Source of the DNA: a virus
Length of the DNA stretch: 64,000 bases
Virus record (IMG/VR): IMGVR_UViG_3300037420_002497
Direction: 5' to 3' (one strand)
Position numbers and translations under genes: made by a program. The notes below the pieces were generated by a model. The model ran no database searches and was not told where the DNA came from. It saw only the letters and a list, made by a program, of their open reading frames with translations. Shown piece by piece: positions 4,783 through 62,939 of the stretch (positions within the stretch are counted from its first letter, which is position 1; the number at the start of each line of letters is the position of its first letter).

Positions 4783-5178
4783 ATGACCACCACCAAGCAC
4801 CTGACCGAGAAGCGCGCCGCCGACCGCAAGCGCATGGCAGACCAGCTGCAGCAGCTGGTGCTGAGGCTGGGCGGCACCGTCGAGCGCAGCCAGCTCACGC
4901 CGCGCTGCGAGATGCTGGACATCACCGGTGCGCAGGGTCTGCACGTCTACATCGACCTCGACGGCGAAAGCTGCCAGCCCGACGTGCATGTGATCCCCTG
5001 GCACATCACCTCCCCCTCCGAGGCCAAGCTGGCGCCCAGCTTCGGGGACGTGAACCCGCACCACTTCCGCAAGGCCACGCACGTTGTGTATGGCTTCGCC
5101 GCGCTGCACGCCGAGATCGAGCGCGGCCTGAGCGCAGCCAAGGACGGCAGCGCCTTCCAGCGCCAGCACGGCGCCTGA
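4783..5178 (+). CDS. hypothetical protein (131 aa)
   Basis: CAGGAGCCACCATG start context. Confidence 0.6.
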   Translation: MTTTKHLTEKRAADRKRMADQLQQLVLRLGGTVERSQLTPRCEMLDITGAQGLHVYIDLDGESCQPDVHVIPWHITSPSEAKLAPSFGDVNPHHFRKATHVVYGFAALHAEIERGLSAAKDGSAFQRQHGA

Positions 5179-5215
5179 CCCTTCCACCACTCGACAGATT
5201 CGACAGGAGCACACC

Positions 5216-5731
5216 ATGGGCTGGACCTTCCCCTACTGCACCAACACCCGCGCGCAACTGGTTGAGCACCTGCGCCGCCCCGAGCGCTTCGGCGATCGCA
5301 CCGAACTGCTGGCCGCCTGCACGCGCGGCAACCATCACTGGTATCTGGCGCGCAACAAGGACACCGGCGTGGTGTGGATCGGCCTGGACCTGATGCAGGG
5401 CGGCACGCGCCGCGAGCCGGGCTGGGGCTACAAGGACATGGACGAGTCCATGGGCCCGTATGCCAGCGACTGCCCGCTGAGCTACCTGGACCGGGCCACC
5501 GAGCCCTGCAACGAACACAGCCGCGACTGGCGCGACGGGGTGCGCAAGTACCACGCCCAGCGCAAGGAACGCCCCGAGCCGCGCGCCGGGCTGCGCGTGA
5601 CCTACTGCGGCCACACCTACGAACTGGTGCGCCCCGCCGGCCCGCGCCGGGGCTGGGAAGTGCGCAACACCAGCGGGACCACGTACCGCATGAACGCGCG
5701 CCAGCTGGCCAGCGCCCAGCCGGTTGCCTGA
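5216..5731 (+). CDS. hypothetical Cys/His-rich protein (171 aa)
   Basis: ACAGGAGCACACCATG start context; TGACCCTTCC motif follows the upstream stop codon. Confidence 0.6.
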   Translation: MGWTFPYCTNTRAQLVEHLRRPERFGDRTELLAACTRGNHHWYLARNKDTGVVWIGLDLMQGGTRREPGWGYKDMDESMGPYASDCPLSYLDRATEPCNEHSRDWRDGVRKYHAQRKERPEPRAGLRVTYCGHTYELVRPAGPRRGWEVRNTSGTTYRMNARQLASAQPVA

Positions 5732-5761
5732 GCCCTTCCCCATCACTACAGGAGCTGCACC

Positions 5762-6169
5762 ATGCACACCCTCTACCGGGTCCACGCCAACGGCACCACG
5801 TTCGGGGACTACCTTGCCGACGACACCCAGGGCGCGCGCAACGCTTGCGCCATGGATGCCGGCTATGCGAGCGAGGCCGACATGGAGCGCCAGCTGGAGC
5901 GCCCCAGCGGACTGGTTGCCGAGCCCATCCCCTGCGTCATCACGCTGAGCTGCGAGGTCGCCAAGGTGCAGGCCGGCGGCTTCGTGTACTACGCAGAGTT
6001 CTACGTGGAGCCCGGCGCCGGCTTCGATGCCGACCTGTACGCCCAGACCTTCGACCTGAACCGTGCCGAGATGGATGCGGACAGCGTGAAGGCGGCGCAG
6101 GACGCGGCGGCGCGGCTGGGCGCCGACGAGGTGCTGATGGTGGGCCGCGTCATCCAGCCGAAGATGTGA
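5762..6169 (+). CDS. hypothetical protein (135 aa)
   Basis: CAGGAGCTGCACCATG start context. Confidence 0.6.
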   Translation: MHTLYRVHANGTTFGDYLADDTQGARNACAMDAGYASEADMERQLERPSGLVAEPIPCVITLSCEVAKVQAGGFVYYAEFYVEPGAGFDADLYAQTFDLNRAEMDADSVKAAQDAAARLGADEVLMVGRVIQPKM

Positions 6170-6255
6170 CCACCGTTGAAGTCGCCACAAGGTTGCGAGC
6201 CACCCTCCAGCGCCAGCCGGCGCCCGATCATCTGCACCCCCACCAGGAGCACCCC

Positions 6256-6519
6256 ATGACCACCAGCACCGCGAACATCGTTGAGATCCTGATCTGGGCC
6301 CCGCAGGTCTGCGGGGAGGACCACACCGGCGCCACGGTCGCCGAAGCGGTGGCCTATGCCGCCAGCCTGGGCGGCCACGCCCAGATCCTGGGCGCCGACT
6401 GGGAGCTGTCCTGGTTCGCGGACTCCACCGACCCCTGGAACTGGATCAAGGCCCGGGGCCCGGTGCCGGCGCACCATGCCCAGGAGCTGGAGCGGGCGCT
6501 GCGCGCGCTGGCCACCTGA
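6256..6519 (+). CDS. hypothetical protein (87 aa)
   Basis: internal start chosen at CAGGAGCACCCCATG; an intrinsic terminator follows. Confidence 0.5.
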   Translation: MTTSTANIVEILIWAPQVCGEDHTGATVAEAVAYAASLGGHAQILGADWELSWFADSTDPWNWIKARGPVPAHHAQELERALRALAT

Positions 6520-6540
6520 GCACCGAGCCCTGCGGCGCCA

Positions 6541-6565
6541 GCCCGGCCCAGCCGGGCTTTTTTTC
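6541..6565 (+). terminator. rho-independent terminator
   Basis: stem GCCCGGCCCAGCCGGGC followed by TTTTTTT. Confidence 0.7.
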
Positions 6566-6597
6566 GCCTGCGGCCCCTCGTTTGCATGGGAAGATGC

Positions 6598-6628
6598 TTG
6601 CGTTGATAGGCGCGCCGCCTATATGATC
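6598..6628 (+). promoter_or_regulatory. promoter-operator copy 2
   Basis: TTGCGT, then the palindrome at 6606-6622, then TATGAT; conserved leader GGCTCGCTCAACGCACCGGAGA. Confidence 0.6.
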
Positions 6629-6657
6629 GAGGCTCGCTCAACGCACCGGAGACCGAG

Positions 6658-7029
6658 ATGCCCAACTGGATTCGCCGCCCGCAGCTGATGGTCGAGACCC
6701 ACCACGAGCTGGTGTATGCGTCCCTGACGCACGCGGGCACCGAGTACCGCTTCACCTGCAACGAGAAGGGCGAAGTGGACCCGGCTGGGCAGACCGAAGC
6801 GCGGCAGCTGGCGCTGGCGCGCTGCGTCGCGGGCCTGGGCACCGCATACGCCCAGCCGCGTCTGGTCTCGCGCGAGCACAGCTGGTTCGACTCTGGCGCC
6901 ATCCGCTGCCACTGCGGCGCGCGCCACGAGCTGGAGCGCCACGACAGCACCTGCGACAGCTGCGGCCAGGACTACAACGGCTTCGGCCAGGAGCTGCGCC
7001 CGCAGTCGCAGTGGGAGGAGGACTACTGA
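6658..7029 (+). CDS. zinc-ribbon-like protein (123 aa)
   Basis: CHCG...C..C motif near the C-terminus; first ORF after the promoter. Confidence 0.6.
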   Translation: MPNWIRRPQLMVETHHELVYASLTHAGTEYRFTCNEKGEVDPAGQTEARQLALARCVAGLGTAYAQPRLVSREHSWFDSGAIRCHCGARHELERHDSTCDSCGQDYNGFGQELRPQSQWEEDY

Positions 7030-7078
7030 GTCCGCCACCCCTTCCACGCCTACCCGCAACCATCCCAGGAGCCACACC

Positions 7079-7750
7079 ATGAAGCCCACCAAAGCCGCCA
7101 CCAGCAACGCACGCAAGGCCCGCGCACAGCGCGCCGACGAGATCATCTGCACCGTTCCCCGCGAGGGAGACGGCGGCTGGTATCTGGATCTTTACTGGCT
7201 TTATTCCAATGGCCGCTATGGCGTCAGCGACACCGATGGGAACCACACCAGCTGCTACGCCCGCGAGCTGCCCAACGCCCGCGAGGAGGCGCAGGCGTGG
7301 CTGGACTATTCCCTGCACGTCGAGAGCACCGGCACCGATCCCCTGGGCGAGTTCAACATCAAGGCGGTGGAGCGCATCAACGAGCTGTGGCACTTCAGGG
7401 TCGAGCCGGATGCGCAAGGCAAGACCCGCGTCCTGGCCGCGCGCCACCACAACGACGCCGAGACCCCGCTGGACGCGCTGCCCGAGCACGTCACCGACTA
7501 CCTGCACCTGATCCCAGGCACGAACGTGTCCGATGACGACTGGACGGCAGTGGCCGACTTCCACGGGGTCAAGCCGGGCGACTGGCTGCAGGACACGGTG
7601 GAGTCCATCACACGCCGCCCGGACGGCGTGGTGCGCGCCGAGCTGATCGAGGCCGCCCGCGCCAGCGTGGAGCGCCAGCGCACGGCGCTGGAGTGGCTGC
7701 CTGCCCGCAAGCGGCGCACGAAGGCCACCCCCGCCCCAGCGCAACCCTGA
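7079..7750 (+). CDS. hypothetical protein (223 aa)
   Basis: CAGGAGCCACACCATG start context. Confidence 0.6.
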   Translation: MKPTKAATSNARKARAQRADEIICTVPREGDGGWYLDLYWLYSNGRYGVSDTDGNHTSCYARELPNAREEAQAWLDYSLHVESTGTDPLGEFNIKAVERINELWHFRVEPDAQGKTRVLAARHHNDAETPLDALPEHVTDYLHLIPGTNVSDDDWTAVADFHGVKPGDWLQDTVESITRRPDGVVRAELIEAARASVERQRTALEWLPARKRRTKATPAPAQP

Positions 7751-7765
7751 ACAGGAGCCACCACC

Positions 7766-7999
7766 ATGACCACGACCCAAGCACCAGCAGCCGAGTTGCG
7801 CCGCGCATGGCTTGTGCCAACGCCCGCCTGGACCCATCCCGCGTGGGTTGTCTGCGCACCCAGACCCATCACCGAGGATGACGCACGGCTGTCCGTCTTT
7901 GGCCCGGTGCCCGCCGGCTTCCCAACCGCGACGCACTTCTTCCCGGCCAACAGCGAGCAGGCCGGCAAGGAGCTGGTGGCGAGCCTGTTGGAGATATAG
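7766..7999 (+). CDS. hypothetical protein (77 aa)
   Basis: CAGGAGCCACCACCATG start context. Confidence 0.5.
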   Translation: MTTTQAPAAELRRAWLVPTPAWTHPAWVVCAPRPITEDDARLSVFGPVPAGFPTATHFFPANSEQAGKELVASLLEI

Positions 8000-8010
8000 G
8001 CGCGCCGCCC
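7996..8010 (+). promoter_or_regulatory. partial (half) copy of the operator palindrome
   Basis: ATAGGCGCGCCGCCC lacks the right arm; lies 30 nt upstream of full copy 3. Confidence 0.4.
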
Positions 8011-8031
8011 CTCGTTTGAGTGGTGATTCTC

Positions 8032-8062
8032 TTGATCGCATAGGCGCGCCGCCTATATGATC
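8032..8062 (+). promoter_or_regulatory. promoter-operator copy 3
   Basis: TTGATC, then the palindrome at 8040-8056, then TATGAT; same conserved leader as copy 2. Confidence 0.6.
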
Positions 8063-8092
8063 TGGGCTCGCTCAACGCAAACGGAGATCGAC

Positions 8093-9061
8093 ATGCAAGC
8101 CACCACCACCCGCACCGGCACCGCCTTCGACGACATGGACAGCGACCTGGGCGCGCTGGCCGGCGAGACCGCCGTCTACGTCCCGGGCGAAGGCCGCAAC
8201 CGTCGCGAGCCGCGCGAGGAGCTGGTGGCGCTGCACGAGGAGAAGTGCCCGAAGTGCCAGGGCTCGGGCCGCTTCCGGGGATTCACGGGCCGCCTGCTGG
8301 GCCAATGCTTCACTTGCCAGGGCGGCGGCAAGGTGTTCTTCAAGACCAGCGCCGTGCAGCGCGCCAAGTGCCGCGAGCAGGCCAAGGCGCGCGAGGAGCG
8401 CAAGCAGCAGGAGGCGCACAGCGCCTTCGCGGCCGAGCACCCGACCGAGTGGGCGTGGATGCGGGAGCGCGCCCTGCGCTGGGACTTCGCCCGCTCCATG
8501 GTCGAGGCGGTGGCCAAGTGGGGCCGCCTGACGGACGGCCAGCTGGCCGCCGTGCGCAAGTGCATCGCCAAGGATGCCGAGCGCGCCCAGCTGCGCGCCG
8601 CCGAGCAGCAGCAGCGCGCCGAGCTGGAGCGCACCGCCCAGGCGGTGAACATCGCCGCCGTCGAGGAAGCCTTCCAGCGCGCCAAGGACCGGCAGGTGAA
8701 TCGCCCGAAGCTGCGCCTTGCCGCCGATGCGGTGGAAGGCGCCGATGCGGCCGAGTACGTGTTCAGCCCGGCCGGCGAGAACAGCCGCAACGCCGGGTCC
8801 GTGTACGTCACCACCCGCCCGGAGCGCGGCGAGGAAGGGGTCTACCTGGGCAAGATCATGGGCGGCAAGTTCCTGAAGGTGCGCGACTGCAGCGCCGCCC
8901 AGGAAGCGCAGATCGTCGCCGTCGCATCCAACCCGGGCGAGGCCGCCAAGGCCTACGGGCAGCGCATCGGCGCCTGCAGCGTGTGCGGTCGCACCCTGAC
9001 GGACGGCACCAGCATCGACCTGGGCATCGGGCCGATTTGCGCAGAGCGCTACGGGTTCTAA
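8093..9061 (+). CDS. zinc-ribbon protein (322 aa) with C-terminal CxxCGRxLTDGTSIDLGIGPICA motif
   Basis: start placed by analogy with the other cassettes; motifs CPKCQGSG, CFTCQGGG and CSVCGR are present. Confidence 0.6.
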   Translation: MQATTTRTGTAFDDMDSDLGALAGETAVYVPGEGRNRREPREELVALHEEKCPKCQGSGRFRGFTGRLLGQCFTCQGGGKVFFKTSAVQRAKCREQAKAREERKQQEAHSAFAAEHPTEWAWMRERALRWDFARSMVEAVAKWGRLTDGQLAAVRKCIAKDAERAQLRAAEQQQRAELERTAQAVNIAAVEEAFQRAKDRQVNRPKLRLAADAVEGADAAEYVFSPAGENSRNAGSVYVTTRPERGEEGVYLGKIMGGKFLKVRDCSAAQEAQIVAVASNPGEAAKAYGQRIGACSVCGRTLTDGTSIDLGIGPICAERYGF

Positions 9062-9096
9062 TCCTTCCTGGCCCGGCCACCACGCCGGGCCCCTTC

Positions 9097-9160
9097 CGGC
9101 GGCTTCGGCCGCCACCACCCCAGCCGGCGAGGAGCCGGCCAGATCGAGGAGATCGCCATG
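9097..9160 (+). repeat. 64-bp direct repeat copy 1 (5'UTR and RBS region)
   Basis: about 97% identical to 9423-9486. Confidence 0.6.
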
Positions 9161-9415: not shown

Positions 9416-9422
9416 CCCGTTT

Positions 9423-9486
9423 CGGCGGCTTCGTCCGCCACCACCCCAGCCGGCGAGGAGCCGGCCAGATCGAGGAGATCACCATG
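9423..9486 (+). repeat. 64-bp direct repeat copy 2
   Basis: matches 9097-9160. Confidence 0.6.
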
Positions 9487-10077: not shown

Positions 10078-10090
10078 GCAGGAGCATACC

Positions 10091-10375: not shown

Positions 10376-10395
10376 CCGCTGAAGCTCCCGCCCAG

Positions 10396-10419
10396 CCCGG
10401 CCGCCGCCGGGCTTTTTTT
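10396..10419 (+). terminator. rho-independent terminator
   Basis: stem CCCGGCCGCCGCCGGG followed by TTTTTTT. Confidence 0.7.
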
Positions 10420-10454
10420 CGCCTGGGTCACCCCGCGAACGCGTGGCGAAGCGC

Positions 10455-10485
10455 TTGCCTTGATAGGCGCGCCGCCTATATGATC
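10455..10485 (+). promoter_or_regulatory. promoter-operator copy 4
   Basis: TTGCCT, then the palindrome at 10463-10479, then TATGAT; conserved leader. Confidence 0.6.
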
Positions 10486-10515
10486 AAGGCTCGCAACGAC
10501 GCACCGGAGAACACG

Positions 10516-10905
10516 ATGCCCTTCGTCATCTGCCCGACCTGCCGCAACAACGCATACGCCCGCAAGGGGGTCGCCGAGGCGACCTGCTTCCTGGACCACA
10601 CCTTCCCCGTGGCCGGCAACGAGCAGCCCAAGACCACCAGCGACCTGCTGCGCGATGAGGTCGAGGCGATCGCGGCCGAGTTCCCCGACCTGGGCCTGTC
10701 GTTCGGCTACATCGGCAATTGGGAGCGCGACTTCGATGGCCGCAGCTTCCGCGTGTTCACGAACCGCCAGGACGAGCACTTCCGCAGCTACTCGATGCAC
10801 CTGGGTGGCGCCGACTCCCTGGAGCGCGCCCTGGAGAGCTTCAAGGCCGGCGCGCTGCGCGCCTTCTGCGAGCGAGCCATGCAGCAGCAGCGCCGCTACT
10901 ACTGA
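10516..10905 (+). CDS. hypothetical protein with N-terminal CPTC zinc-knuckle-like motif (129 aa)
   Basis: start placed by analogy with the other cassettes (leader ...GGAGAACACGATG). Confidence 0.55.
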   Translation: MPFVICPTCRNNAYARKGVAEATCFLDHTFPVAGNEQPKTTSDLLRDEVEAIAAEFPDLGLSFGYIGNWERDFDGRSFRVFTNRQDEHFRSYSMHLGGADSLERALESFKAGALRAFCERAMQQQRRYY

Positions 10906-10946
10906 CCCCTTCCCCGCCTACCCGCACAACCACCAGGAGCCACACC

Positions 10947-11489
10947 ATGGAAACCATCACCAACTTGCACGCCGCGATCGAAGCCCACAAGCCGGCGCTG
11001 GCCGCCAGCTTCACCAGCCGCGTCGAGTCCATGTTCGGCTACCTCGTGTCCAAGTTCGGCGTGCGGATGGACGGCATCTACAACACCACCAGCGCCAAGG
11101 TGTGGCGTGAAACGCTGAGCCCGTTGTGCTCCCACACCCGGGCCAACGACCTGCGCCGCAGCGCCGAGTACCACCTCAACCCGGAGAAGGTGGCCAAGGC
11201 CGCCGCCGAGTACGCCAACCAGACCACCGCAGCCTGGGAAGCCAAGATCCAGGCCAAGCTGGGAGAGCTGGACAGCGCCACGGTGCACTGCCTGGAAGGC
11301 GTGCGCTTCCGCATCACCGGCACGCGCGCCGGCCGCGCCGTCGAGATCCAGCAGGACATGATCCTGAACGTGTCGGCCAAGGGAACGGTGTTCAACCAGT
11401 TCCCGGCGCGCATATACATCGACCGCAAGTTCACCAGCGAGACCGCCTACAAGCGGCTGTTCGCCCCCCAGCAAGCGCAGACCATCTGA
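10947..11489 (+). CDS. hypothetical protein (180 aa)
   Basis: CAGGAGCCACACCATG start context. Confidence 0.6.
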   Translation: METITNLHAAIEAHKPALAASFTSRVESMFGYLVSKFGVRMDGIYNTTSAKVWRETLSPLCSHTRANDLRRSAEYHLNPEKVAKAAAEYANQTTAAWEAKIQAKLGELDSATVHCLEGVRFRITGTRAGRAVEIQQDMILNVSAKGTVFNQFPARIYIDRKFTSETAYKRLFAPQQAQTI

Positions 11490-11548
11490 CCCCTGACCGA
11501 CCCGCCCGGCCGCCGCGCTGGGCCCTCCAGCACCGCCAGGAGACCGCC

Positions 11549-11737: not shown

Positions 11738-11744
11738 GCTGGCC

Positions 11745-11795: not shown

Positions 11796-12290
11796 ATGAG
11801 CACCACCTGGACCCCCATCGGCGGCCTAACGGAGAACCCCGGCGCGTGGAGCGACAACAACGGCGGGTTCATCTTCGTCGCCCGAAACGACGATGGCGTG
11901 ATCCGCCGGCAGTTCCGTCCCCACCCCTACCAGGGCGAGCCCTACACGCTCTACACCGGCGACCCCAAGGACCAGGGCGGGCCCAATGTGCCCGATGGCG
12001 CGGTCGCATTCCGGTCGCCGGAAAAGGCCGCCGCCCACCGCCGCAAGCTGGAGGAACAGGAAGCGCTCAAGGGTGTGACTTGGACGGCATCCGGGACGGT
12101 CAGGACAAAGGCCGCGAGCGTTGACGCCGCCATTCAAGCGGCGGCCGAGCATCTGCGCTATCGGCTTGATGGCGGCAGCGCCAGCGTGCGCGTCGATGGC
12201 GTGCTGGCCGCAGACATCGAGTGCTCTTACGCCACCGGCTGGGCCTTCAGGGTCGAGCGTCACAGCCAATGGGCCAAGAAGCGCGCCTGA
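11796..12290 (+). CDS. hypothetical protein (164 aa)
   Basis: GAGGAGCAAGACCATG start context. Confidence 0.55.
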   Translation: MSTTWTPIGGLTENPGAWSDNNGGFIFVARNDDGVIRRQFRPHPYQGEPYTLYTGDPKDQGGPNVPDGAVAFRSPEKAAAHRRKLEEQEALKGVTWTASGTVRTKAASVDAAIQAAAEHLRYRLDGGSASVRVDGVLAADIECSYATGWAFRVERHSQWAKKRA

Positions 12291-12320
12291 CCCCTTCCGC
12301 CGCTGCCCAGGAGCCACGCC

Positions 12321-12704
12321 ATGAGCAAGCCACGCCACGAGCACCGGCTGCACGAGCTGGTACGAAACGTCACCCAGGCGCAGGCCGACGCCTGGGCCAA
12401 GCGCTGCGACCGCAGCTTCGCGTTCTGCATTGAGCTGCTGGGCCTGTCCGTGGAGCGCCACGGGCTGGACTTCTGCGAAGCCTGGGCCGCTCGCCTGGAG
12501 GAGCGCTTCCAGGAGCTGGACGATGCCGCGTGGCGCGAATACTGCGCCGCCGATGACGCGTTCTGGGCCCAGCAGGAGCACACCATGCCCAGCTATCAGG
12601 ACTGGCTGCGCGACCAGGAGCCCGACCGACCCATCAGGGTGGACAGCTGGGCATTCGACCGGCACATGGAGCTGCAGCGCGAGCGCCTGGACGGCTACCG
12701 CTAA
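12321..12704 (+). CDS. hypothetical protein (127 aa)
   Basis: CAGGAGCCACGCCATG start context. Confidence 0.55.
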   Translation: MSKPRHEHRLHELVRNVTQAQADAWAKRCDRSFAFCIELLGLSVERHGLDFCEAWAARLEERFQELDDAAWREYCAADDAFWAQQEHTMPSYQDWLRDQEPDRPIRVDSWAFDRHMELQRERLDGYR

Positions 12705-12750
12705 ACCCACCCCTTCCCCGCTCACCCACAACACCCACAGGAGCCACCCC

Positions 12751-13185
12751 ATGGAAACCGTCACCCGCGACACCATCACCACCCAGACCCTGAGCGCCGA
12801 CGCCCTGCGCGAGCTGGTGCTGCTGGGCCTGAAGGCCAAACGCCCCAACGACCCCGTCATCGAGCTGCTGGAGATCAAGCCGGGCGAGCGCAACACCTAC
12901 GAGCTGACCCTGCGCCGCGCCCCGCAGGACGCCGACTTCGTGCGCGCGGTGCTGCACTTCCAGCCCGAGCACGTCGCGCAGGCACTCAACCAGCTGACCC
13001 AGGCGGGCCGGCTCTGGCTGGGCTTCACCAAGGCCGACATGGCGCGCGAGTACCGGCGCGCCTGCGCCCACACGCCGGGGCTGCTGCCCACCGGGGTGGC
13101 CGAGCGGCTGCGCCGGCTGGATCTGCAGCAGCTGGCGCAGTGCGCCCAAGCCTGCGAAGACGGCACCCCCTGGACCGGCGCCTGA
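12751..13185 (+). CDS. hypothetical protein (144 aa)
   Basis: CAGGAGCCACCCCATG start context. Confidence 0.55.
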   Translation: METVTRDTITTQTLSADALRELVLLGLKAKRPNDPVIELLEIKPGERNTYELTLRRAPQDADFVRAVLHFQPEHVAQALNQLTQAGRLWLGFTKADMAREYRRACAHTPGLLPTGVAERLRRLDLQQLAQCAQACEDGTPWTGA

Positions 13186-13845: not shown

Positions 13846-14763
13846 ATGTACGAAGCCATCACCCCCGCCGCCCGTTTTGGTCGCGACGCCACGGTGATCC
13901 GCAAGGACCGCGCCCTGACAACCGATGAGCTGCGCGCCGTGGTCCCGTCCCTGTTCGCCCCAGGCGCTCACGAAAGCCGCTCGCAGCGCTACACCTACAT
14001 CCCCACCATTGATGTCCTGAACGAGCTGCGCAAGGAGGGCTTCATGCCCTTCAAGGCGATGCAGTCCAAGTGCCGCGACGTGTCTAAGCGCGAGTACACC
14101 AAGCACGCGCTGTGGCTGCGCCACACCTCGCAGTACGACCGGGGCCAGCTCAAGCAGGTGGGCGATTCGGTGCACGAGATCGTGCTGCTCAACAGCCATG
14201 ACGGCACCAGCGCCTACCAGATGAAGGCCGGCGTGTTCCGCTTGATCTGCACCAACGGCATGGTGGTCAGCGACGGCGCGGTGCAGGACATCCGCGTGCC
14301 GCACAAGGGGGACGTGGGGCATGAGGTGATGCGCGGCGCTTTCGAGGTGCTGGACGGCTTCACCCGCGTGGTGGGCCCCAAGGTCGAAGACATGCGTCGC
14401 ATCACGCTCAGCGAGGAGGAGCAGACCATCATGGCCGACGCCGCCCTGATGCTGCGCTTCGATGACCCGAGCCGGCCGGCGCCCGTCACCGCCAACGACA
14501 TCAACGTGCCGCGCCGCTGGGAGGATCGGGGCAACAGCCTGTGGCTGACTGCCAACCGCTTTCAGGAGAACCTGACCAAAGGCGGGCTGGATGGCCGCAA
14601 CGCGCGCGGCAAGCAGATGAAGACCCGCCCGGTGCAGGGCCTGGATCGCGACGTGGGCCTGCAGTCGGCGCTGTGGCAGCTCACCGAGCGCATGCGTGCC
14701 CTCAAGAACGGCGAGCCCATCCCCGAGATGGCGCGCCCGGCTGAGGATCTGGTCGCCGCCTAA
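13846..14763 (+). CDS. DUF932-family protein (305 aa), a family typical of plasmids and ICEs
   Basis: motifs YTYIPT, WLRHTSQ and LLNSHDGTSAY...RLICTNGMV recognised from memory of the DUF932 family. Confidence 0.65.
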   Translation: MYEAITPAARFGRDATVIRKDRALTTDELRAVVPSLFAPGAHESRSQRYTYIPTIDVLNELRKEGFMPFKAMQSKCRDVSKREYTKHALWLRHTSQYDRGQLKQVGDSVHEIVLLNSHDGTSAYQMKAGVFRLICTNGMVVSDGAVQDIRVPHKGDVGHEVMRGAFEVLDGFTRVVGPKVEDMRRITLSEEEQTIMADAALMLRFDDPSRPAPVTANDINVPRRWEDRGNSLWLTANRFQENLTKGGLDGRNARGKQMKTRPVQGLDRDVGLQSALWQLTERMRALKNGEPIPEMARPAEDLVAA

Positions 14764-14818
14764 GCAGTCCGGCCCGGCCGCCGCGCCGGGCCCTTCCATC
14801 ACCACCCCGGAGAGCGCC

Positions 14819-15103
14819 GTGAGCACGATCAAATTTTTGACCCTGGAACACCTGCGCGTGATCCTTGGCACCGCCGCCGCGATCGCAAAGAGCCCGTCGC
14901 GGCGTGGCGCCGGGTGGCTGCCCGCAGCCATCACCAGCAGCGTGCCGCGCCGCACCGGCGGCGAGGTGGGGCGCTGGGACGACAACGCCGAGGCGCGCCG
15001 CCTGGACACGGACGCCCGGCGCGCCCTGGACGCTGGCGACCGCCTTGGCGCCGCCAGCATCCTGAGCAAGCTGCTTGAGCTGCAGCGCGGCGCAGGACGA
15101 TGA
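14819..15103 (+). CDS. hypothetical protein (94 aa), GTG start
   Basis: GGAGAG sits 5 nt upstream of the GTG; a GC hairpin plus the CCCTTCC motif lie upstream. Confidence 0.4.
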   Translation: MSTIKFLTLEHLRVILGTAAAIAKSPSRRGAGWLPAAITSSVPRRTGGEVGRWDDNAEARRLDTDARRALDAGDRLGAASILSKLLELQRGAGR

Positions 15104-15448: not shown

Positions 15449-16036
15449 ATGGCAACTTGGCTTGGCTCTCGCGCATGGCACTGCGGCAACCCCGAGTGCC
15501 CCGAAGGCGGCTGGCACAAGGCGAGCTACGAGCACGACACCGCCACCGACACCTTCACGGTGGACGAATACTCGGACGGCAAGACCGAGGAGATAGATGA
15601 GGGTGAGGTGCCCGGCCAGCTGGCGCTGGATGCCTCGTGGATGGCGTACAGCATCGACGTGGCCCGCACCGGCGCCGACCCGCTGCACGCCTTCCCGGTG
15701 CCCCGCACCAACCCCACCGCCGAGTGGTGGGAAATCTGCGTGCAGCCGGCCCCCAACGGCATGGCCAACCTCCTGGGCGCGCGCCCGTTCGGCGCCCAGA
15801 CAGCCACGGCACCGCTGCCGCTGTGCGTTGCCGAGAGCCTGGGCGTGATCCCGGACACCGGCACGCTGCGCACGCCCTGGGCCCAGCTGCAGGTCGCCGG
15901 GCCGCCGCTGGTCGCCAACCAGTGGCACCTCGTCCAGCTGATGGTGCAGCGCGATCGCCCGGCCGAGCAGGTGGAGCACGAGCTGAAGCTGGCCGCCTGC
16001 GACTTCATCGCCCAGCGGCGCAACGCCAAAGCCTGA
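15449..16036 (+). CDS. hypothetical protein (195 aa)
   Basis: starts immediately after the previous stop codon. Confidence 0.55.
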   Translation: MATWLGSRAWHCGNPECPEGGWHKASYEHDTATDTFTVDEYSDGKTEEIDEGEVPGQLALDASWMAYSIDVARTGADPLHAFPVPRTNPTAEWWEICVQPAPNGMANLLGARPFGAQTATAPLPLCVAESLGVIPDTGTLRTPWAQLQVAGPPLVANQWHLVQLMVQRDRPAEQVEHELKLAACDFIAQRRNAKA

Positions 16037-16064
16037 CCCCTTCCGCCGCTGCCAGGAGAACAGC

Positions 16065-16283
16065 ATGCATATCGAGAACCCCACCCCCGAGCAGCAGCGC
16101 CTGCTGCAGCACGCCCAGGAATGGCGTGACTACGCCGCCACCGCCAGCCCGGAGGGCTTGGCCCGCACCTGCCTGGACGCCGCCAAGGCGCTGGAGATGC
16201 AGGCGCAGGACGGCATCGCCCGCTGCAGCTGCTGCTTCAAGCCCCGCTCGCGCGGCATGTGGGACGGCCACTTCGACCGTTGA
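16065..16283 (+). CDS. hypothetical protein (72 aa)
   Basis: CAGGAGAACAGCATG start context. Confidence 0.45.
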   Translation: MHIENPTPEQQRLLQHAQEWRDYAATASPEGLARTCLDAAKALEMQAQDGIARCSCCFKPRSRGMWDGHFDR

Positions 16284-16482: not shown

Positions 16483-16776
16483 ATGAACACGCAAGCCACC
16501 CAACCCAACCGCAAGCCGCTGGCTCCCACCTGGGGCGGCATCGTGCACCTGCTGGCCGAGGTGTCCGTCACGGCCGAAAGCATCGAGGCCCGCCGGCAGG
16601 CCAGGACCGAGCTGCAGCGGCTGGCGCGCATCGCCGACGCGCTGGCGCCTGCCCTGGCTGAAGCACTGCAGGGCTTCCTGGACCAGTACGAGGGCACCGA
16701 TGCCGAGTTCCCCGCCCTGACCCAAGGCCGGGCCGCCATGAAGCTGTTCAACGAGATCCGCAAGCCCAAGGACTGA
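16483..16776 (+). CDS. hypothetical protein (97 aa)
   Basis: CAGGAGATCCCCTATG start context. Confidence 0.5.
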   Translation: MNTQATQPNRKPLAPTWGGIVHLLAEVSVTAESIEARRQARTELQRLARIADALAPALAEALQGFLDQYEGTDAEFPALTQGRAAMKLFNEIRKPKD

Positions 16777-16832
16777 CCCCTTCCCCGGTTGGCGCTGCCA
16801 ACCCTTCCCCCGCCACCAACAGGAGCCACACC

Positions 16833-17447
16833 ATGAGCCAGAAATCCGTCAGCGTCGCCATCAGCAACGGCCAGATGCGCGTGCAGTGCCCGTTCAATGA
16901 GCTGTTCATCGGCAGCGCCCACAAGAGCACGGGAACCTGGGATCGCATCAGCAAGTGCTGGGTGTTTGACGCGCGCAACGAGGTGCCGGTGCGCAAGTTG
17001 CTCGCCAAATACTTCGGCACCGATGGCGACTCCATTCCCGACGTGGTTTCGCTGCGCGTGCGGTACGCAGCCGGCGAAGGCGTGACACGCGGCCCCATCA
17101 CCCTGTTCGGCCGCATCATCGCCCGCGCCGAGGACCGCGACGGCGGCGCCGAAGTGGGCTCGGGCGTGCTGGTGGAGAGTGGAGGCTTCACCAGCGGCGG
17201 CAGTCGCGCGAACTGGTGCACCGAAGCCGATCGCCAGGGCGCCGTGGTGGTGCTGCACGACTTCCCGCGCAAGCGTGCGCTGCAGCTGGTGGAGTCGGAC
17301 CCCAAGAGCTACGAGATCGTGAAGCCCGAGCAGCCCACCATCGACGTGGAAGGGCTGACCGCCGAGCGCCAGCGGCTGGCCGCACGCATCGCCGAGATCG
17401 ACGCCGCCCTGGCCACCGCCAGCATCGTCAAGAAAGCCTCAGCCTGA
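16833..17447 (+). CDS. hypothetical protein (204 aa)
   Basis: CAGGAGCCACACCATG start context. Confidence 0.6.
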   Translation: MSQKSVSVAISNGQMRVQCPFNELFIGSAHKSTGTWDRISKCWVFDARNEVPVRKLLAKYFGTDGDSIPDVVSLRVRYAAGEGVTRGPITLFGRIIARAEDRDGGAEVGSGVLVESGGFTSGGSRANWCTEADRQGAVVVLHDFPRKRALQLVESDPKSYEIVKPEQPTIDVEGLTAERQRLAARIAEIDAALATASIVKKASA

Positions 17448-17458: not shown

Positions 17459-17776
17459 ATGGAATCCGACCTGCTACTGGTGGCCGACCACGCCCTGACG
17501 CCCGACGAGCGCAAGCTGTTCCTGGACCGCTTCACTGCCGTCAACCGCCACTATCGCGGCGCCCATGTGGCGGACGTGCTGGAAGTGCTGTACGACACCG
17601 ACGCCTATTGCGGCCACGTCGAGCAGTTCCTGCAGGAGCACCCGGAAGTGCCCGGCGAGGTCGGGGCCCTGGCCCTGCTGTGCGCGATCCTCCTCTACAA
17701 CGGCCCCGGCGAGCCCACCGACGCCCAGGCGCTGGCGCTGGCCGATCGCATCACCAAGGCCGCCGCCCGCGACTGA
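17459..17776 (+). CDS. hypothetical protein (105 aa)
   Basis: GAAGGAGCCAGCCATG start context. Confidence 0.5.
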   Translation: MESDLLLVADHALTPDERKLFLDRFTAVNRHYRGAHVADVLEVLYDTDAYCGHVEQFLQEHPEVPGEVGALALLCAILLYNGPGEPTDAQALALADRITKAAARD

Positions 17777-17835
17777 CCCCTTCCGGGGGAATCGGCCGCC
17801 TATCCCCCGAGGCAGGTGGGGGCACGGCGGGCTCT

Positions 17836-17856
17836 TAGGCGCGGCGCCTATACTGC
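17836..17856 (+). promoter_or_regulatory. promoter-operator copy 6 (variant: palindrome TAGGCGC-G-GCGCCTA, -10 TATACT)
   Basis: has a 1-nt spacer instead of 3, but the same half-sites. Confidence 0.5.
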
Positions 17857-17886
17857 GCCCGAAGACCACAGCACCAGGAGCACACC

Positions 17887-18165
17887 ATGGCAGGCCCCCA
17901 CCGCCATCGCGGCCCACACACCGTGGAGCTGGGCGAAGGCTGGCAGGAGTTCATGACCCCGCAGCAGGCCCCGCAGGGCTGGCAGATGCTGGGCACGATC
18001 CACCGGGTGGAGGCCGGCAAGGGCGCCCTGGTGCTGTCCCCCAAGGGCGAGTATTTCTGCGGCAAGGGCATCACCCTGGAGCCGCTGATTCATCGCAAGG
18101 TCGAGGGCGCGCTGCGCGCCGCCGGCCACATGCCACCCAGGAAGGACAGGAGCGTCACCCCATGA
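17887..18165 (+). CDS. hypothetical protein (92 aa)
   Basis: CAGGAGCACACCATG start context. Confidence 0.5.
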   Translation: MAGPHRHRGPHTVELGEGWQEFMTPQQAPQGWQMLGTIHRVEAGKGALVLSPKGEYFCGKGITLEPLIHRKVEGALRAAGHMPPRKDRSVTP

Positions 18166-18875: not shown

Positions 18876-19148
18876 ATGGACCGACGCCAGCGGTTTGAAG
18901 CCTGGGCCCGCGAACAGGGCTGGAGCCTGACGCGCGTCACCGGCAGCGACGACTACGCCTGGGCGCCGGCCCGGGCCGCCTGGGCAGCGTGGCAGGAGCT
19001 GGCGCCGGACGCCGAGCGCTGGCGCTGGGCGCTCAAGCGCAACCGGCCCACGCTGCTGGCCATCGCCTACAGCTCCCGCGCCGCGTGCGCCTACGGTCTC
19101 GACGAGGTGGAGGACGCCTACGCCGCCGCGATGCGCGAGGCGCCCTGA
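18876..19148 (+). CDS. hypothetical protein (90 aa)
   Basis: ORF ending just before the bidirectional terminator. Confidence 0.5.
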   Translation: MDRRQRFEAWAREQGWSLTRVTGSDDYAWAPARAAWAAWQELAPDAERWRWALKRNRPTLLAIAYSSRAACAYGLDEVEDAYAAAMREAP

Positions 19149-19173
19149 CCCCTTCCCCGGCTGCGCGGGACAG

Positions 19174-19211
19174 AAAAAAGCCCCGGGGTTTGCCGTGCCC
19201 CGGGGCTTTTC
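19174..19211. terminator. bidirectional rho-independent terminator
   Basis: AAAAAAGCCCCGGGG...CCCCGGGGCTTTT, at a convergent junction. Confidence 0.7.
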
Positions 19212-19408
19212 CATTTCTGCAGAAACTCGGTGAGGACCAGACCAGCCGCCGCCGGTTGTGCGCCGCCTGCGAGGCCAGTTCCCTATTCGCGGCGCTGCGA
19301 TTCGGGGCCGTGTCCAGCGCGTGCTCCCTGCACGCTCGGCTGGAACCTCACCATGTGGCCGCAACTATAACCACTGATATTAACCACAGGGTAACAAAGC
19401 CCCCGGAT

Positions 19409-47579: not shown

Positions 47580-47598
47580 CCACACCAAGGAGCCACCC

Positions 47599-48828
<1,230 letters not shown>

Positions 48829-60846: not shown

Positions 60847-60884
60847 TTCGCCACCACTGACGCCCCCACCGACAGGAGCCACAC

Positions 60885-61916
60885 ATGAGCATCGACCTTT
60901 CGCAATCCCTGGACCTGGGCGACCTGAGCGCCACCGCCGCCACCGGCGAGCCGCTGAAGCTGTGGGCCGCCACCATCCGGCCCAGCCGCTGGGCCAACCG
61001 CCACGAGCTGAGCTTCCTGAGCCCGGAGTTCAACGCCCTGAAGGAGGAGATCAAGAACGCGGGCGGCAACGTCCAGCCGATCAAGGTGCGCCCGCTGGCG
61101 CAGCCCGAGGACGGCGTGGAGTACGAGGTGGTGTTCGGCCACCGCCGCCACCGCGCCTGCCTGGAGCTGGGCATCGAGGTGGCCGCCGTGGTCGAGGCCG
61201 TGGACGACCAGCATCTGTGGGCGCAGATGGAGCGCGAGAACCGCGCCCGCGAGCCGCTGTCGGCCTACGAGCAGGGGACGATGTACCAGCGCGCGATGGA
61301 CGAAGGGCTGTTCCCGTCCATCCAGGCGCTGGCCAAGGCGATCGGCCGCAGCGCGGGCGACATCAGCAAGGCCATCTCCATCGCCCGGCTCCCGCCCGAG
61401 GTGGTGCAGGCCTTCGGCTCACCCCAGGACATCGGGTTCCGCGACGCCAAGCCGCTGAAGGACGCGGTGGAGGCGGCGCCCGAGGCGGTGGCCCAGGCCG
61501 CCCGCGCGCTGGCCGCCGTGCCCCAGGCGCTGCCGCCGAAGGTGGTGGTGCAGCGGCTCGCCGCCGCCGCCGGCATGGCCGATGACGACCAGAACGAAGC
61601 CGAGGAGGAGCCGGCCGAGGCGGCTGTTGGACGGTCCAACAAGGCCAAGGCAGCGCCCGCGCCGAGCCCGGCAGCGCCAGCTGTTGGGCCGTCCAACAAG
61701 CCCGCGCCGGCCCCGAAGGCGGCCCCGGTTGCGCACCTGCGGGTGGTGGTCGAGGTCGGCGAGGAGCTGATGGAGCTGGTCACCGACTGCCGCCCGAAGC
61801 GGGGCCTGATCCCGGTGCGGCCAGTGGCCAGCGATGAGGCGCCGCAGTACCTGCCGGCGGGCAAGGTGCGCATCGTCCGTGCCGAGGCCCAGGCGCCCCG
61901 CACGTTTACGGGTTAA
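60885..61916 (+). CDS. parB: ParB-like partition protein (343 aa)
   Basis: N-terminal ParB/Srx-like motif VVFGHRRHRACLELG; follows parA; CAGGAGCCACACATG start context. Confidence 0.65.
   Translation: MSIDLSQSLDLGDLSATAATGEPLKLWAATIRPSRWANRHELSFLSPEFNALKEEIKNAGGNVQPIKVRPLAQPEDGVEYEVVFGHRRHRACLELGIEVAAVVEAVDDQHLWAQMERENRAREPLSAYEQGTMYQRAMDEGLFPSIQALAKAIGRSAGDISKAISIARLPPEVVQAFGSPQDIGFRDAKPLKDAVEAAPEAVAQAARALAAVPQALPPKVVVQRLAAAAGMADDDQNEAEEEPAEAAVGRSNKAKAAPAPSPAAPAVGPSNKPAPAPKAAPVAHLRVVVEVGEELMELVTDCRPKRGLIPVRPVASDEAPQYLPAGKVRIVRAEAQAPRTFTG
61625..61641. promoter_or_regulatory. dispersed palindrome site 5 (TGTTGGACGGTCCAACA), inside the parB 3' region
   Basis: perfect palindrome. Confidence 0.5.
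61682..61698. promoter_or_regulatory. dispersed palindrome site 6 (TGTTGGGCCGTCCAACA), inside the parB 3' region
   Basis: one mismatch. Confidence 0.45.
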
Positions 61917-62049
61917 CCCGGGAAGTGAGCGCACGCCCCGGGAAAACTCCGGGTAACTCCTACCGTTCAAGGGCGGCATCCTTGCTCGCGATGATTCCGT
62001 TGCCGTTTAGCGGCAACAATGCCCACCGCGAAAGAAGAAAGGATGTCGC

Positions 62050-62382
62050 GTGAGACTGAAGCCAGAAGAAATCTTGAAGTGCCTGGGGCTGGTCGTGCCG
62101 GCCGAGGGGTTGGAGATCGACGCCAAGGAGGCGCCTATCCACATTGCGGCGTTGACGCTGCTGGGGCGCACGCTGCGCATGCGGGCGATTCCCGACCGTG
62201 AGCTGATGGGGCTGTCGGTTGGGATCGCCGTGCTGTACGACAAGTGGTGTGGCCGCCCGGTCGAGGAGCTGACCCGGGACGTGGACCTGTTGCGGACCAG
62301 CATCGAAAAACTACTGATCGACAACTACTTCCTGGGGCCCGAAGCCATCCGGCGACCGATCCAGGAGCAGCCGCAGGGGTAG
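62050..62382 (+). CDS. hypothetical protein (110 aa), GTG start
   Basis: AAAGAAAGGA RBS; a terminator follows. Confidence 0.45.
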   Translation: MRLKPEEILKCLGLVVPAEGLEIDAKEAPIHIAALTLLGRTLRMRAIPDRELMGLSVGIAVLYDKWCGRPVEELTRDVDLLRTSIEKLLIDNYFLGPEAIRRPIQEQPQG

Positions 62383-62412
62383 GGCCCTGACGCGGCATCT
62401 TCCGCAAACCAG

Positions 62413-62433
62413 CCGCCCCGAAGGCGGCTTTTT
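62413..62433 (+). terminator. rho-independent terminator
   Basis: stem GCCGCCCCGAAGGCGGC followed by TTTTT. Confidence 0.65.
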
Positions 62434-62450
62434 CACGCCTGCCGGGCGGC

Positions 62451-62467
62451 TGTTGGACGGTCCAACA
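62451..62467. promoter_or_regulatory. dispersed palindrome site 7 (TGTTGGACGGTCCAACA), intergenic after the terminator
   Basis: identical, including flanks, to site 5. Confidence 0.5.
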
Positions 62468-62612
62468 AGCCCGCACCCCGTCCTTCTGATCGCGGTATTC
62501 CCGCCGTGCAGACACGCGTGCGAGAAGGAATGGACGTTAGCCAATGGTTAAGGCAGGATAGGCTTCCCGCCGGTTGATGTATTTCAGCTGGCGCGAACCC
62601 CAGGAGCCACAC

Positions 62613-62939
62613 ATGCAAGTCACCATCAACATCCCCGATGCCGTCCTGCGGGAAGCCATCGAAGCCCAAGTCGGCGCTGCCGTCGCCAAGATCACCAGCG
62701 AGGTGATCCACGCCAAGGCCAACGAGATCATCGACAAGAAGATGGAGCGCTTCGACCCGGAGGCGATCGCCAGGGCCTTCGTCACTTCCCAGATGACCGA
62801 AACGGTGCGAGCCCAGATGTCCACCGAGCTGCTGGCCCTGCTCGGCCCGCAGGGCTACCAGCGCCGCCAAAAGGTGGAGGAGCTGGTGATGCAGGTCGCG
62901 AAGCAGCTCCTGCGCGGCGAGGTCGGAGGCAAGGCATGA
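62613..62939 (+). CDS. hypothetical protein (108 aa)
   Basis: CAGGAGCCACACATG start context. Confidence 0.5.
   Translation: MQVTINIPDAVLREAIEAQVGAAVAKITSEVIHAKANEIIDKKMERFDPEAIARAFVTSQMTETVRAQMSTELLALLGPQGYQRRQKVEELVMQVAKQLLRGEVGGKA

Follow-up and report, generated by a model that had tools for sequence, protein, structure and literature searches.

A stop-to-start linker between unrelated small genes of a Burkholderiales phage-like element: a candidate portable initiation region and homology patch

The sequence analysed (the window) is the whole 64,000-nucleotide IMG/VR virus record IMGVR_UViG_3300037420_002497, which has a G+C content of about 69%. It belongs to a Burkholderiales phage-like element, and between 4.0 and 19.2 kb it carries about 34 small accessory genes in a rightward, hyperplastic array. 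Unrelated genes of this array are joined by a conserved linker of about 45 nt, comprising a box, CCCCTTCC, at or just past the stop codon of one gene, a G-poor spacer, and a ribosome-binding block that ends at the start codon of the next. From comparison of the sequences, the linker is read, with a probability of about 0.5, as a portable translation-initiation region that would also act as a short homology patch for the shuffling of gene cassettes. It was seen in three elements: the window, one mosaic relative 94-98% identical to it, and one distant syntenic relative.

Array genes (n = 34, rightward, 4010-19148, numbered with the prefix g) were called where an open reading frame (ORF) was rich in G+C at third positions and had a Shine-Dalgarno site. 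Most had no family match; the exceptions were DUF6011 (g10), DUF932 (g22) and weak helix-turn-helix (HTH) matches (g32, g33). In its general character the array looks like an early region of host-takeover or anti-defence type.

The exact box was found 18 times in the window, against 2.45 +/- 1.46 expected from dinucleotide-preserving shuffles, and 17 of the 18 copies were on the plus strand. Its 7-nt core, CCCTTCC, was present 18 times between 3700 and 19200 (1.7 expected from composition) and six times in the remaining 48.5 kb (4.9 expected), where there was no enrichment. All 21 orderings of five C and two T were counted: CCCTTCC and three 7-mers overlapping it had 12-18 copies, the rest at most two each. 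Because the non-overlapping 7-mers of the same composition are this rare, CCCTTCC is a specific word and not an effect of C-rich composition. The block CAGGAGCCACACCATG, with up to two mismatches allowed, was matched eight times against 0.07 expected (four exact, two with one and two with two mismatches); the match at 36890 on the minus strand is probably due to chance. An earlier interpretation made without database searches (the sequence-only reading) had described a conserved linker at many gene junctions, and these counts bear it out.

The exact core lay within 20 nt past the stop codon of 11 of the 34 array genes, or 13 if one mismatch was allowed, mostly at offsets of 0-2 nt. The sequence-only reading had listed the exact box as standing immediately after the stop at a longer series of positions. 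Direct adjacency to TGA was found at 10905, 12290, 16035, 16775, 17775 and 19147. At 5178 only the 7-mer CCCTTCC is present (so too at 5731), the boxes at 7030 and 12707 lie 8 and 5 nt past the stop, and those at 9090 and 14790 are preceded by a GC-rich hairpin, not by a stop. The box at 4480 starts one base away from its stop codon. Three extra copies that had been noted upstream of the array are real; they are long forms of the box (3786, 3861 and 3890) that precede the first array promoter by about 85-190 bp, and a fourth long form lies at 17776.

Full linkers occupied nine of the 33 junctions (Table 1). Their order was stop codon, 0-8 nt, (A)CCCCTTCC, a G-poor spacer of 6-30 nt, (C)AGGAGCC(AC)ACC and ATG. 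Four boxes lay beyond the full linkers: two past a hairpin, one ahead of a sixth operator-like site and one past the last gene. Several short junctions, TGAacAGGAGCCACCACCATG among them, retained the 3' block only. Whole linkers of about 45 nt could be aligned with one another and fell into sub-families, such as CCCCTTCCCCGCCTACCCGCA..CCACCAGGAGCC and CCCCTTCCGCCGCTGCC(C)AGGAG, and the similarity can extend a few codons into the neighbouring genes. The genes that flank similar linkers are unrelated, g8 and g25 being the sole paralogues (29% identity, weak). Tandem gene duplication was rejected as the origin of the similar linkers, since paralogy is limited to this one pair.

Table 1. Positions of linkers, ribosome-binding blocks and promoter or terminator modules in the window
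Feature	Position	Strand	Description
Three long-form boxes	3786..3911	+	ACCCCTTCCG(G/T)GGGAAT(CACGG) at 3786, 3861, 3890; inverted repeat TTCC-N3-GGAA
P1 promoter-like module	3950..3979	+	TTGCAT, 18-nt spacer with ATAGGCGCGCCGCCTAT, TATGAT; first of five copies
Full linker g1/g2	4478..4513	+	TGA-g-CCCCTTCC, C-rich spacer, GGAGCCACCGC-ATG; extra 90-amino-acid gene here in the close relative
Linker g2/g3, box-free	4742..4785	+	C-rich spacer and CAGGAGCCACC-ATG; left endpoint of the g3+g4 replacement
Full linker g3/g4	5176..5218	+	TGA-CCCTTCC, spacer, ACAGGAGCACACC-ATG
Full linker g4/g5	5729..5764	+	TGA-g-CCCTTCC, spacer, ACAGGAGCTGCACC-ATG; right endpoint of the g3+g4 replacement
Terminator and P2	6532..6657	+	Stem 6540-6558 and seven T, promoter-operator, conserved 5' leader
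Full linker g7/g8	7027..7081	+	TGA, 8 nt, CCCCTTCC, ACGCCTACCCGCAAC..., CAGGAGCCACACC-ATG
Short linker g8/g9	7748..7768	+	TGA-ac-AGGAGCCACCACC-ATG; close relative without g9
P3 and leader	8004..8092	+	Extra operator-like half copy 7995-8009 at the g9 deletion endpoint
Junction g10/g11	9059..9160	+	Stop, GC-rich hairpin (no T run), CCCCTTCC 9090-9097, second hairpin, ribosome-binding site
Terminator, P4 and leader	10387..10515	+	Stem 10394-10413 and seven T
Full linker g14/g15, consensus form	10903..10949	+	TGACCCCTTCCCCGCCTACCCGCACAACCACCAGGAGCCACACCATG
Full linker g17/g18	12288..12323	+	TGACCCCTTCCGCCGCTGCCCAGGAGCCACGCCATG
Full linker g18/g19	12702..12753	+	TAA, 5 nt, CCCCTTCC, spacer, ACAGGAGCCACCCC-ATG
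Terminator and P5	13668..13848	+	Stem 13676-13693 and seven T; then CCCAGGAGCCACACC-ATG of the DUF932 gene
Junction g22/g23	14761..14821	+	Stop, hairpin, CCCTTCC 14791-14797, spacer, GGAG, GTG
Full linker g25/g26	16034..16067	+	Left copy of direct repeat CTGACCCCTTCC around g26-g28
Full linker g28/g29	16774..16835	+	Two boxes (16777, 16802), CAGGAGCCACACC-ATG; right copy of the g26-g28 direct repeat
Junction g30/g31	17774..17889	+	TGA, long-form box CCCCTTCCGGGGGAATC, sixth operator-like site TTAGGCGCGGCGCCTATACTG, CCAGGAGCACACC-ATG
Array end	19146..19215	+	TGACCCCTTCC past last gene; terminator-like hairpin near 19180 (AAAAAAGCCCCGGGG...CCCCGGGGCTTTTCC)
Ribosome-binding block before rtcB	47588..47601	+	AGGAGCCAC; outside array, box-free
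Ribosome-binding block before parB	60874..60887	+	AGGAGCCACAC-ATG; outside array, box-free
Ribosome-binding block before gene starting 62613	62602..62615	+	AGGAGCCACAC-ATG

Translation is the role to which the 3' end of the linker points. The ribosome-binding block is asymmetric and on the plus strand, with the 3' consensus CAGGAGCCACACC; the AGGAG core stands 7 nt from the ATG, and CC occupies positions -2/-1 at 28-29 of the 34 array starts. The junctions are 11-56 nt long, C-rich (51% C and 22% G in the short linkers) and predicted to be unstructured. Over -40 to +20 at the starts behind full linkers the mean predicted folding energy was -6.9 kcal/mol, against -21.7 +/- 5.1 for internal coding 60-mers (p = 6e-7). 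A shared translational signal, which the sequence-only reading had offered as one of its possibilities, is supported by this spacing and weak folding. The block (C)AGGAGCC(AC)ACC-ATG has a Shine-Dalgarno core at optimal spacing, and further conserved bases in it have no pairing partner in 16S rRNA. The G-poor, C/A-rich spacer would hold the initiation region single-stranded within a messenger of about 69% G+C, and therefore any cassette placed behind the linker would be translatable; the linkers would in this way drive translation. Two other roles were considered for the sequence around the stop. Read-through of UGA-C into the linker was dropped, the next ATG being out of frame (one junction, g14/g15, by eye). 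Pairing of the box with the Shine-Dalgarno site or 16S rRNA was rejected, as at most 4 bp are possible with GGAG; a contact with helix 45 of betaproteobacterial 16S rRNA was a further, speculative idea.

The proposed exchange would rest on the same parts. The 5' block, (CTG)ACCCCTTCC, lies at or just past the stop codon of the preceding gene, and both blocks, like the hairpin or terminator and promoter-operator modules, recur in direct orientation at many junctions. As the sole sequence common to unrelated neighbouring cassettes, they could serve as short homology patches. Recombination at these patches would insert, delete, replace or reorder cassettes and leave reading frames and operon structure intact. 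Phage annealing proteins tolerate short, imperfect homology, and the Sak4-like annealing protein of the element itself may help such recombination; its action at these linkers is a conjecture.

A strict form of the linker, CCCCTTCC-N5-35-CAGGAGCCACNCCATG (five matches in the window), was searched for elsewhere. Among one genome each for 185,579 species it gave six singletons in unrelated taxa and no multi-copy locus, and in JGI metagenome contigs eight singletons, none multi-copy. In IMG/VR it was found in one contig alone, a close relative with four matches. Looser patterns yielded one additional true relative, in Azohydromonas aeria, and otherwise unrelated matches. On these numbers an ordinary stop and start codon context of the host, which the sequence-only reading had set against its own proposal, is hardly credible as the source of the pattern: no genome of the 185,579 species carried more than one strict match, and the box is missing at the leftward operons, just as it is not enriched outside the array. 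What can be said for that explanation is that a proteobacterium of high G+C would quite ordinarily have AGGAG about 7 nt from a start and C after TGA, and that AGGAGCCAC also precedes three genes outside the array. Two of these, parB (block at 60874) and the gene starting at 62613 (block at 62602; previously placed at 62598), had been correctly reported as sharing the ribosome-binding block, and rtcB (47588) is the third.

Several other candidates from these searches were set aside. IMG/VR matches to the operator pattern TAGGCGCGCCGCCTATA (L019-L021, L024) were attributed to chance, being in low-G+C contigs without linkers. One contig from the looser IMG/VR pattern (L092) matched on its C/T-rich antisense strand and had no linker set, and in four others (L032, L033, L035, L047) TGACCCC was part of the TTGACC -35 hexamer of an unrelated promoter. 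Distant relatives with DUF6011 (L026-L030) had no linkers. The array searched against PLSDB with megablast gave only weak DUF932 matches in Xanthomonas plasmids and no relative; the DUF932 protein searched against genome contigs gave no confirmed relative. A homologous-protein search with g17 led to three contigs identical to the window (L056-L058) and to no new variant. A literature search combining the box sequence with phage retrieved, among the papers listed, no relevant described counterpart of the stop-adjacent box.

The close relative (REL) is IMG/VR and JGI contig 3300037423, Ga0395907_0000104, for which loci L002, L004, L022, L023 and L025 were joined; IMG/VR classes it as a viral contig. 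That both variants are real is shown by independent samples: the window sequence reappears, 100% identical, in a second JGI sample and two Logan runs, and that of REL, also at 100%, in another Logan run. Shared blocks were 94-98% identical and were interrupted by nine insertion, deletion or replacement events. Resolved to the nucleotide, most endpoints lay inside a box, a ribosome-binding block with its ATG, or one of the repeated hairpins or operators; all others were at a gene boundary or within about 30 nt of one.

At g1/g2 the extra gene of REL has a copy of the linker on either side. An unrelated gene of 74 amino acids (r4) stands in place of g3 and g4; the limits of this swap are exactly the ribosome-binding block and ATG on the left and the stop and box on the right. 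Before g8, REL has two extra genes, and the segment duplicated there runs from the ribosome-binding block to nucleotide 31 of the gene. The right endpoint of the g9 deletion is inside the operator-like half copy. In place of g11-g13 REL has two other genes, the left endpoint being the last base of the box (9097) and the right a terminator stem. Gene g23 is replaced, with its left endpoint (14793) at a hairpin and box. Genes g26-g28 are in the window only; a copy of the direct repeat CTGACCCCTTCC, part of a 33-nt repeat, lies on each side of them. An indel at 17793 follows directly on a long-form box. Lastly, the HTH gene g33 (18528-18872) is in the window only, is precisely absent from REL, and is flanked by the 10-nt direct repeat CTGAGCCATG. 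Similarity stops at 9097, 14793, 16044 and 17793, each of which is the end of a box. Cassettes present only in REL have linkers of the same style.

A comparison of the junctions with those of a mosaic relative had been proposed in the sequence-only reading, and in REL the endpoints indeed lay mostly in a box, ribosome-binding block, hairpin or operator. From the alignments it can be said that, where unrelated cassettes meet, the junction module is the sole shared sequence, that crossovers lie inside it, and that short direct repeats of it flank the indels. The linkers would then be substrates of recombination, beyond a mere selection for events located at boundaries. The suggestion of recombination linkers is supported by these endpoints and by the different cassette order in the distant relative; the linkers are not proven hotspots (p = 0.16, below).

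Identity between window and REL ranged from 85% to 100% gene by gene, and mismatches within shared genes were clustered in patches (g14, 10701-10836; g17, 11828-11885; g21, 13469-13524), for example 18 in 136 nt, in genes that matched fully elsewhere. The patches indicate frequent short-tract recombination in the lineage, as judged from their distribution along the genes. They also look as if a third variant, not sampled here, had been the source of short conversion tracts. First and second codon positions diverged by 2.9% and promoter or terminator modules by 3.0%. The ratio of about 0.5 between codon positions (2.9% vs 5.8% at third positions) suggests relaxed or diversifying selection on the cassette proteins. 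Substitutions in the linkers were mainly in the spacer, with none in the AGGAG core. At one junction of REL (r24/r25, 24887-24929) a 41-nt insert is present where the window (15447-15449) has TGAcATG with a one-base gap; it contains half an operator and a -10-like sequence (GCCGCCTATACT) and is apparently a promoter remnant.

Several observations weigh against a linker that initiates translation and is exchanged by homology. Junctions with a box served as breakpoints in 8 of 13 cases and box-free junctions in 7 of 21, which is not a significant difference (Fisher p = 0.16). Some events used other microhomologies, such as CTGAGCCATG around g33. Surviving mosaics of any kind are expected to show endpoints at boundaries, and BLAST blocks necessarily run on through shared motifs, so that the coincidence of endpoints with motifs is partly definitional. 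Short linkers diverged by 5.4% between window and REL, as fast as third codon positions (5.8%), and the box was altered in about 5 of 14 orthologous instances in a manual comparison of this small sample, near the neutral expectation. The evidence comes from two lineages and three sequences. Finally, a role in translation alone leaves a specific stop-adjacent 8-mer and its long palindromic forms unexplained.

The near-neutral pace of change bears on the idea that the box has no function and is the conserved edge of an ancestral linker, spread passively with the flanks of cassettes and common as linker-flanked cassettes move more. Divergence of linkers at the synonymous rate would be expected of it, as would the alignment of full linkers of about 45 nt, not of the end blocks alone, and the degenerate variants CCCCTCCC, CCCGTCC and CCCCTTGC at orthologous positions. 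Passive spread is nevertheless quite improbable: the exact core persists where the backbone is only 32-60% identical and the spacer consensus differs, so it would have been randomised unless exchange were continuous, and the long forms away from gene junctions are left unaccounted for.

The relative in which the core persists is Azohydromonas aeria GCA_009760915.1, contig VIDQ01000012.1 (L053, L055), found through a single loose-pattern match. It was compared with the window by ORF-level blastp; tblastx was discarded as noise. Its backbone is syntenic with that of the window at 32-60% amino-acid identity, and here too a rightward array adjoins a leftward operon, whose HAD_SAK_2, 236-amino-acid and 294-amino-acid proteins are 60%, 52% and 32% identical to those of the window. 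A DUF932 homologue with 68% identity is on another contig of the same assembly. The array itself has been turned over: 3 of its 20 genes have window homologues (55%, 63% and 33% identity), in changed order, and 17 of 20 differ. The 33% match is to the weak HTH protein g32, the neighbour of g33. CCCTTCC lies within 20 nt past 13 of the 20 stops (17 with one mismatch), and the other strand has no copy. Ahead of the starts stands ACAGGAGCC...CC-ATG, the spacer consensus, GCCGCTTTGACA, is lineage-specific, and long-form boxes, ACCCCTTCCCGGGAATTGAGAC, stand at the array end and in a non-coding stretch between leftward genes. Because both end blocks are conserved while the spacer is lineage-specific and the genes have been turned over, the two blocks appear to be maintained, which could be by selection or by continual linker-mediated exchange. 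One array gene of 436 amino acids (L055 14441-15751) matches the Pfam AcrVA2-like family, which suggests that the arrays carry anti-defence genes.

The array is divided into transcription units by terminator and promoter-operator repeats. The terminator, GCCCGGCC..GCCGGGC and seven T, is repeated at 6540, 10394 and 13676, and each copy is followed by a fresh promoter copy. The promoter-like cassette comprises CTTGnn, an 18-nt spacer with the perfect palindrome ATAGGCGCGCCGCCTAT, and TATGAT, in five near-identical copies (3950-3979, 6598-6627, 8032-8061, 10455-10484 and 13739-13768), of which a promoter consensus scan picks up those at 8032 and 10455. There is a degenerate sixth copy at about 17836-17856 and a leftward-facing one at about 3215-3240. 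The palindrome shared by the five cassettes looks like the predicted target of one repressor for every array unit; the Azohydromonas relative has another half-site, TTCGCCTAWTMT. Counts of the half-operator CGCCTA in the spacers showed no clear pattern. Three further hairpins, at 9073, 11505 and 14770, lack a T run. The arrangement at the array end, a box and then a terminator-like hairpin, is also present in REL.

These modules bear on whether the box could be bound, as DNA, by a regulator that the element encodes, in the manner of the stoperators of Cluster A mycobacteriophages such as L5 (PMC9283540), with cassette shuffling as a side effect. Long sites (ACCCCTTCC-G/C-GKGGAAT) would nucleate binding upstream of promoters, and half-sites at junctions would block or modulate elongation in a silent state. 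Long forms of the TTCC-N2-3-GGAA type are indeed found upstream of P1 and of the sixth operator-like site, and those between leftward Azohydromonas genes are non-coding, in a place where rightward transcription is unlikely. The box is asymmetric, in a single orientation and in short intergenic spaces that overlap stop codons; the exact 7-8-mer is kept across deep divergence while adjacent bases vary, and two small HTH proteins are encoded at the array end. A regulator site is all the same unlikely. The operator of the five array promoters is another palindrome and their core is box-free, no box occurs in leftward operons in any of the three elements whereas stoperators are genome-wide and transcription-oriented (PMC9283540), a position tied to the stop (offsets mostly 0-2 nt) is needless for a DNA site, and turnover of the box between close relatives is nearly neutral.

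Direct comparison with stoperators gave the same division. Both are short, asymmetric, multi-copy sites in short intergenic gaps, often at stops and oriented with transcription. A stoperator has the sequence of the promoter operator; P1-P5 carry ATAGGCGCGCCGCCTAT between -35 and -10 and no box. Stoperators occur in all operons, and here the box is confined to the rightward array in all three elements, with 0-4 copies per element on the opposite strand and none at leftward-operon stops of the three elements. The protein that binds stoperators is a monomeric immunity repressor in which an HTH domain is combined with a stoperator domain; among the proteins here no such repressor was identified, the weak HTH matches of g32 and g33 being the only ones found. 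The box thus resembles stoperators in placement and asymmetry and departs from them in two defining features.

A signal at the RNA level, beside the terminating ribosome, is slightly more doubtful than a DNA site. The box would then act in transcript processing, in the loading of Rho or an anti-terminator, or as an aid to termination-reinitiation. Such a signal would agree with the sense-strand position of the array boxes, always directly past a stop or past a 3' hairpin that lacks a T run, and with the composition of the stretch from -45 to +20, which is C-rich, G-poor and rut-like. The rut sites of Rho have a C-rich, G-poor composition, and T7 RNase III sites and T4 RegB sites, in early intergenic regions, are precedents. 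Long forms upstream of promoters or in antisense position, where the RNA would not be made, do not fit, and there was no Rfam match, no conserved secondary structure and no fixed distance to the start (box to Shine-Dalgarno site about 6 to more than 40 nt). Anti-termination, the other function suggested in the sequence-only reading, found no support and would be unneeded, because every intrinsic terminator of the array has a new copy of the same promoter right after it.

The box is exactly conserved, keeps a fixed place beside the stop and has partly palindromic long forms ahead of promoters, all of which point to a putative sequence-specific reader. It is possible, if on balance doubtful, that CCCCTTCC is a stop-associated sequence, a new cis-element placed after stops and read by an element-encoded factor that switches the whole cassette array as a unit. 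Such a factor could bind DNA, with the long palindromes as nucleation sites, or nascent RNA near the terminating ribosome. If this were so, a newly captured cassette would automatically be controlled through its own linker.

The portable initiation linker proposed here has its closest match, in mode of working, in the promoter-early stem-loop (PeSL) cassettes of T4-type phages (Arbiol et al. 2010, PMC2839356; PMC4122927). In both, conserved intergenic modules surround orphan genes of hyperplastic regions, near-identical phages have indels and replacements that cross over inside the modules (including between Shine-Dalgarno site and start), and the modules are interpreted as linkers for modular shuffling. 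The terminator and promoter-operator modules of the window (6532, 10387, 13668) have the same composite build. PeSL elements carry a strong early promoter of sigma-70 type, whereas the nine full linkers here are without a -35/-10 pair and promoters are confined to five separate promoter-operator modules. As to the stem-loop, which serves PeSL elements as a terminator or attenuator, terminators precede promoters in PeSL-like fashion at 6540, 10394 and 13676, and most linkers are hairpin-free and predicted to be unstructured. In PeSL cassettes, flanking modules recombine to release circular cassette DNA (mini-circles). What is shuffled here would be a cistron inside an operon rather than a gene that is expressed by itself. 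The sequences are not similar, and host and phage group differ, the group here being probably temperate or plasmid-like with a high-G+C Burkholderiales host.

The resemblance to start-associated sequences (SAS, 5'-GGGATAGGAGCCC) of Cluster K mycobacteriophages (Pope et al. 2011, PMC3203893) is one of function and not of membership. Each is an asymmetric block 3-7 nt upstream of ATG that combines AGGAG with bases unable to pair with 16S rRNA, occurs in one orientation in the non-structural part of the genome before unrelated gene families, and is missing from host genomes; a putative role in translation initiation is assigned to both. The 13-bp consensus GGGATAGGAGCCC, with at most two deviations, was not matched by the block here, CAGGAGCCACACC, which has AGGAGCC alone in common with it. 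The second conserved box at the upstream stop exists only here, the host phylum differs, and the 17-bp inverted repeats of extended SAS were not seen. Direct evidence of cassette exchange at the sites is available here.

Modular theory for lambdoid phages (discussed in PMC2839356) proposes that short conserved sequences at module boundaries target homologous recombination between unrelated modules. In the array described here the repeats are packed much more closely, nearly every second junction having one; they also act as expression signals, and unrelated cassettes in three elements share them. With integrons the array shares promoterless small genes in one orientation, junction elements, and gain, loss and reordering of cassettes. 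No attC-like imperfect palindrome (57-141 bp) was found at the junctions, and no integrase among the window proteins scanned, which were a part of the ORFs. The junction here includes a ribosome-binding site, and exchange appears to depend on homology, not on a site-specific recombinase.

Linker-mediated shuffling is a principle known from other phages; new here is a linker at the level of the cistron, with a stop-associated box, in an undescribed lineage. Arrays of small orphan genes are the store from which phages and plasmids draw anti-defence and host-takeover functions, and how such arrays gain and lose genes without loss of expression is poorly understood beyond T4-type phages. The lineage would have a compact answer, in which about 45 nt give the next gene its translation start and supply homology for exchange. 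Two variants that co-occur in related metagenomes document exchanges at nucleotide resolution. The stop-adjacent box, conserved although the array genes have been almost wholly turned over, is a clear experimental target. Practical uses are conceivable too: cassette arrays of the lineage could be sought by means of the linker, and expression constructs for high-G+C Betaproteobacteria could employ it as a portable intercistronic part.

The rest of the window is phage-like, with a Sak4-like AAA_24 protein, RtcB, HAD_SAK_2, dihydrofolate reductase, GP88-family, Band_7 and ParA/ParB proteins; Rfam, tRNA and PADLOC scans gave zero matches. The HAD_SAK_2 domain protein (21099-21593, minus strand) and RtcB (47599-48828, plus strand) are of RNA-repair types, and dihydrofolate reductase is encoded at 44048-44734 on the plus strand. 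The RNA repair genes may offset the action of host nucleases on tRNA or mRNA. Degenerate short repeats (GCACCAGGG, CAGCTG, CAGGGCG) lie at 1-1100 and 3300-3660, on either side of the leftward GP88-family gene (2159-3001). The G+C content falls to 0.61 at these repeat arrays, which could be an origin, a partition site or a packaging region. Within the gene array, an 88-nt direct repeat (89% identical) is present at 9073-9160 and 9399-9486, ahead of g11 and g12. It contains a hairpin, GGCGGCTTCGGCCGCC, and two Shine-Dalgarno-like sites, GGCGAGGAGCC...TCGAGGAGATC, and is a linker type distinct from that with CCCCTTCC.

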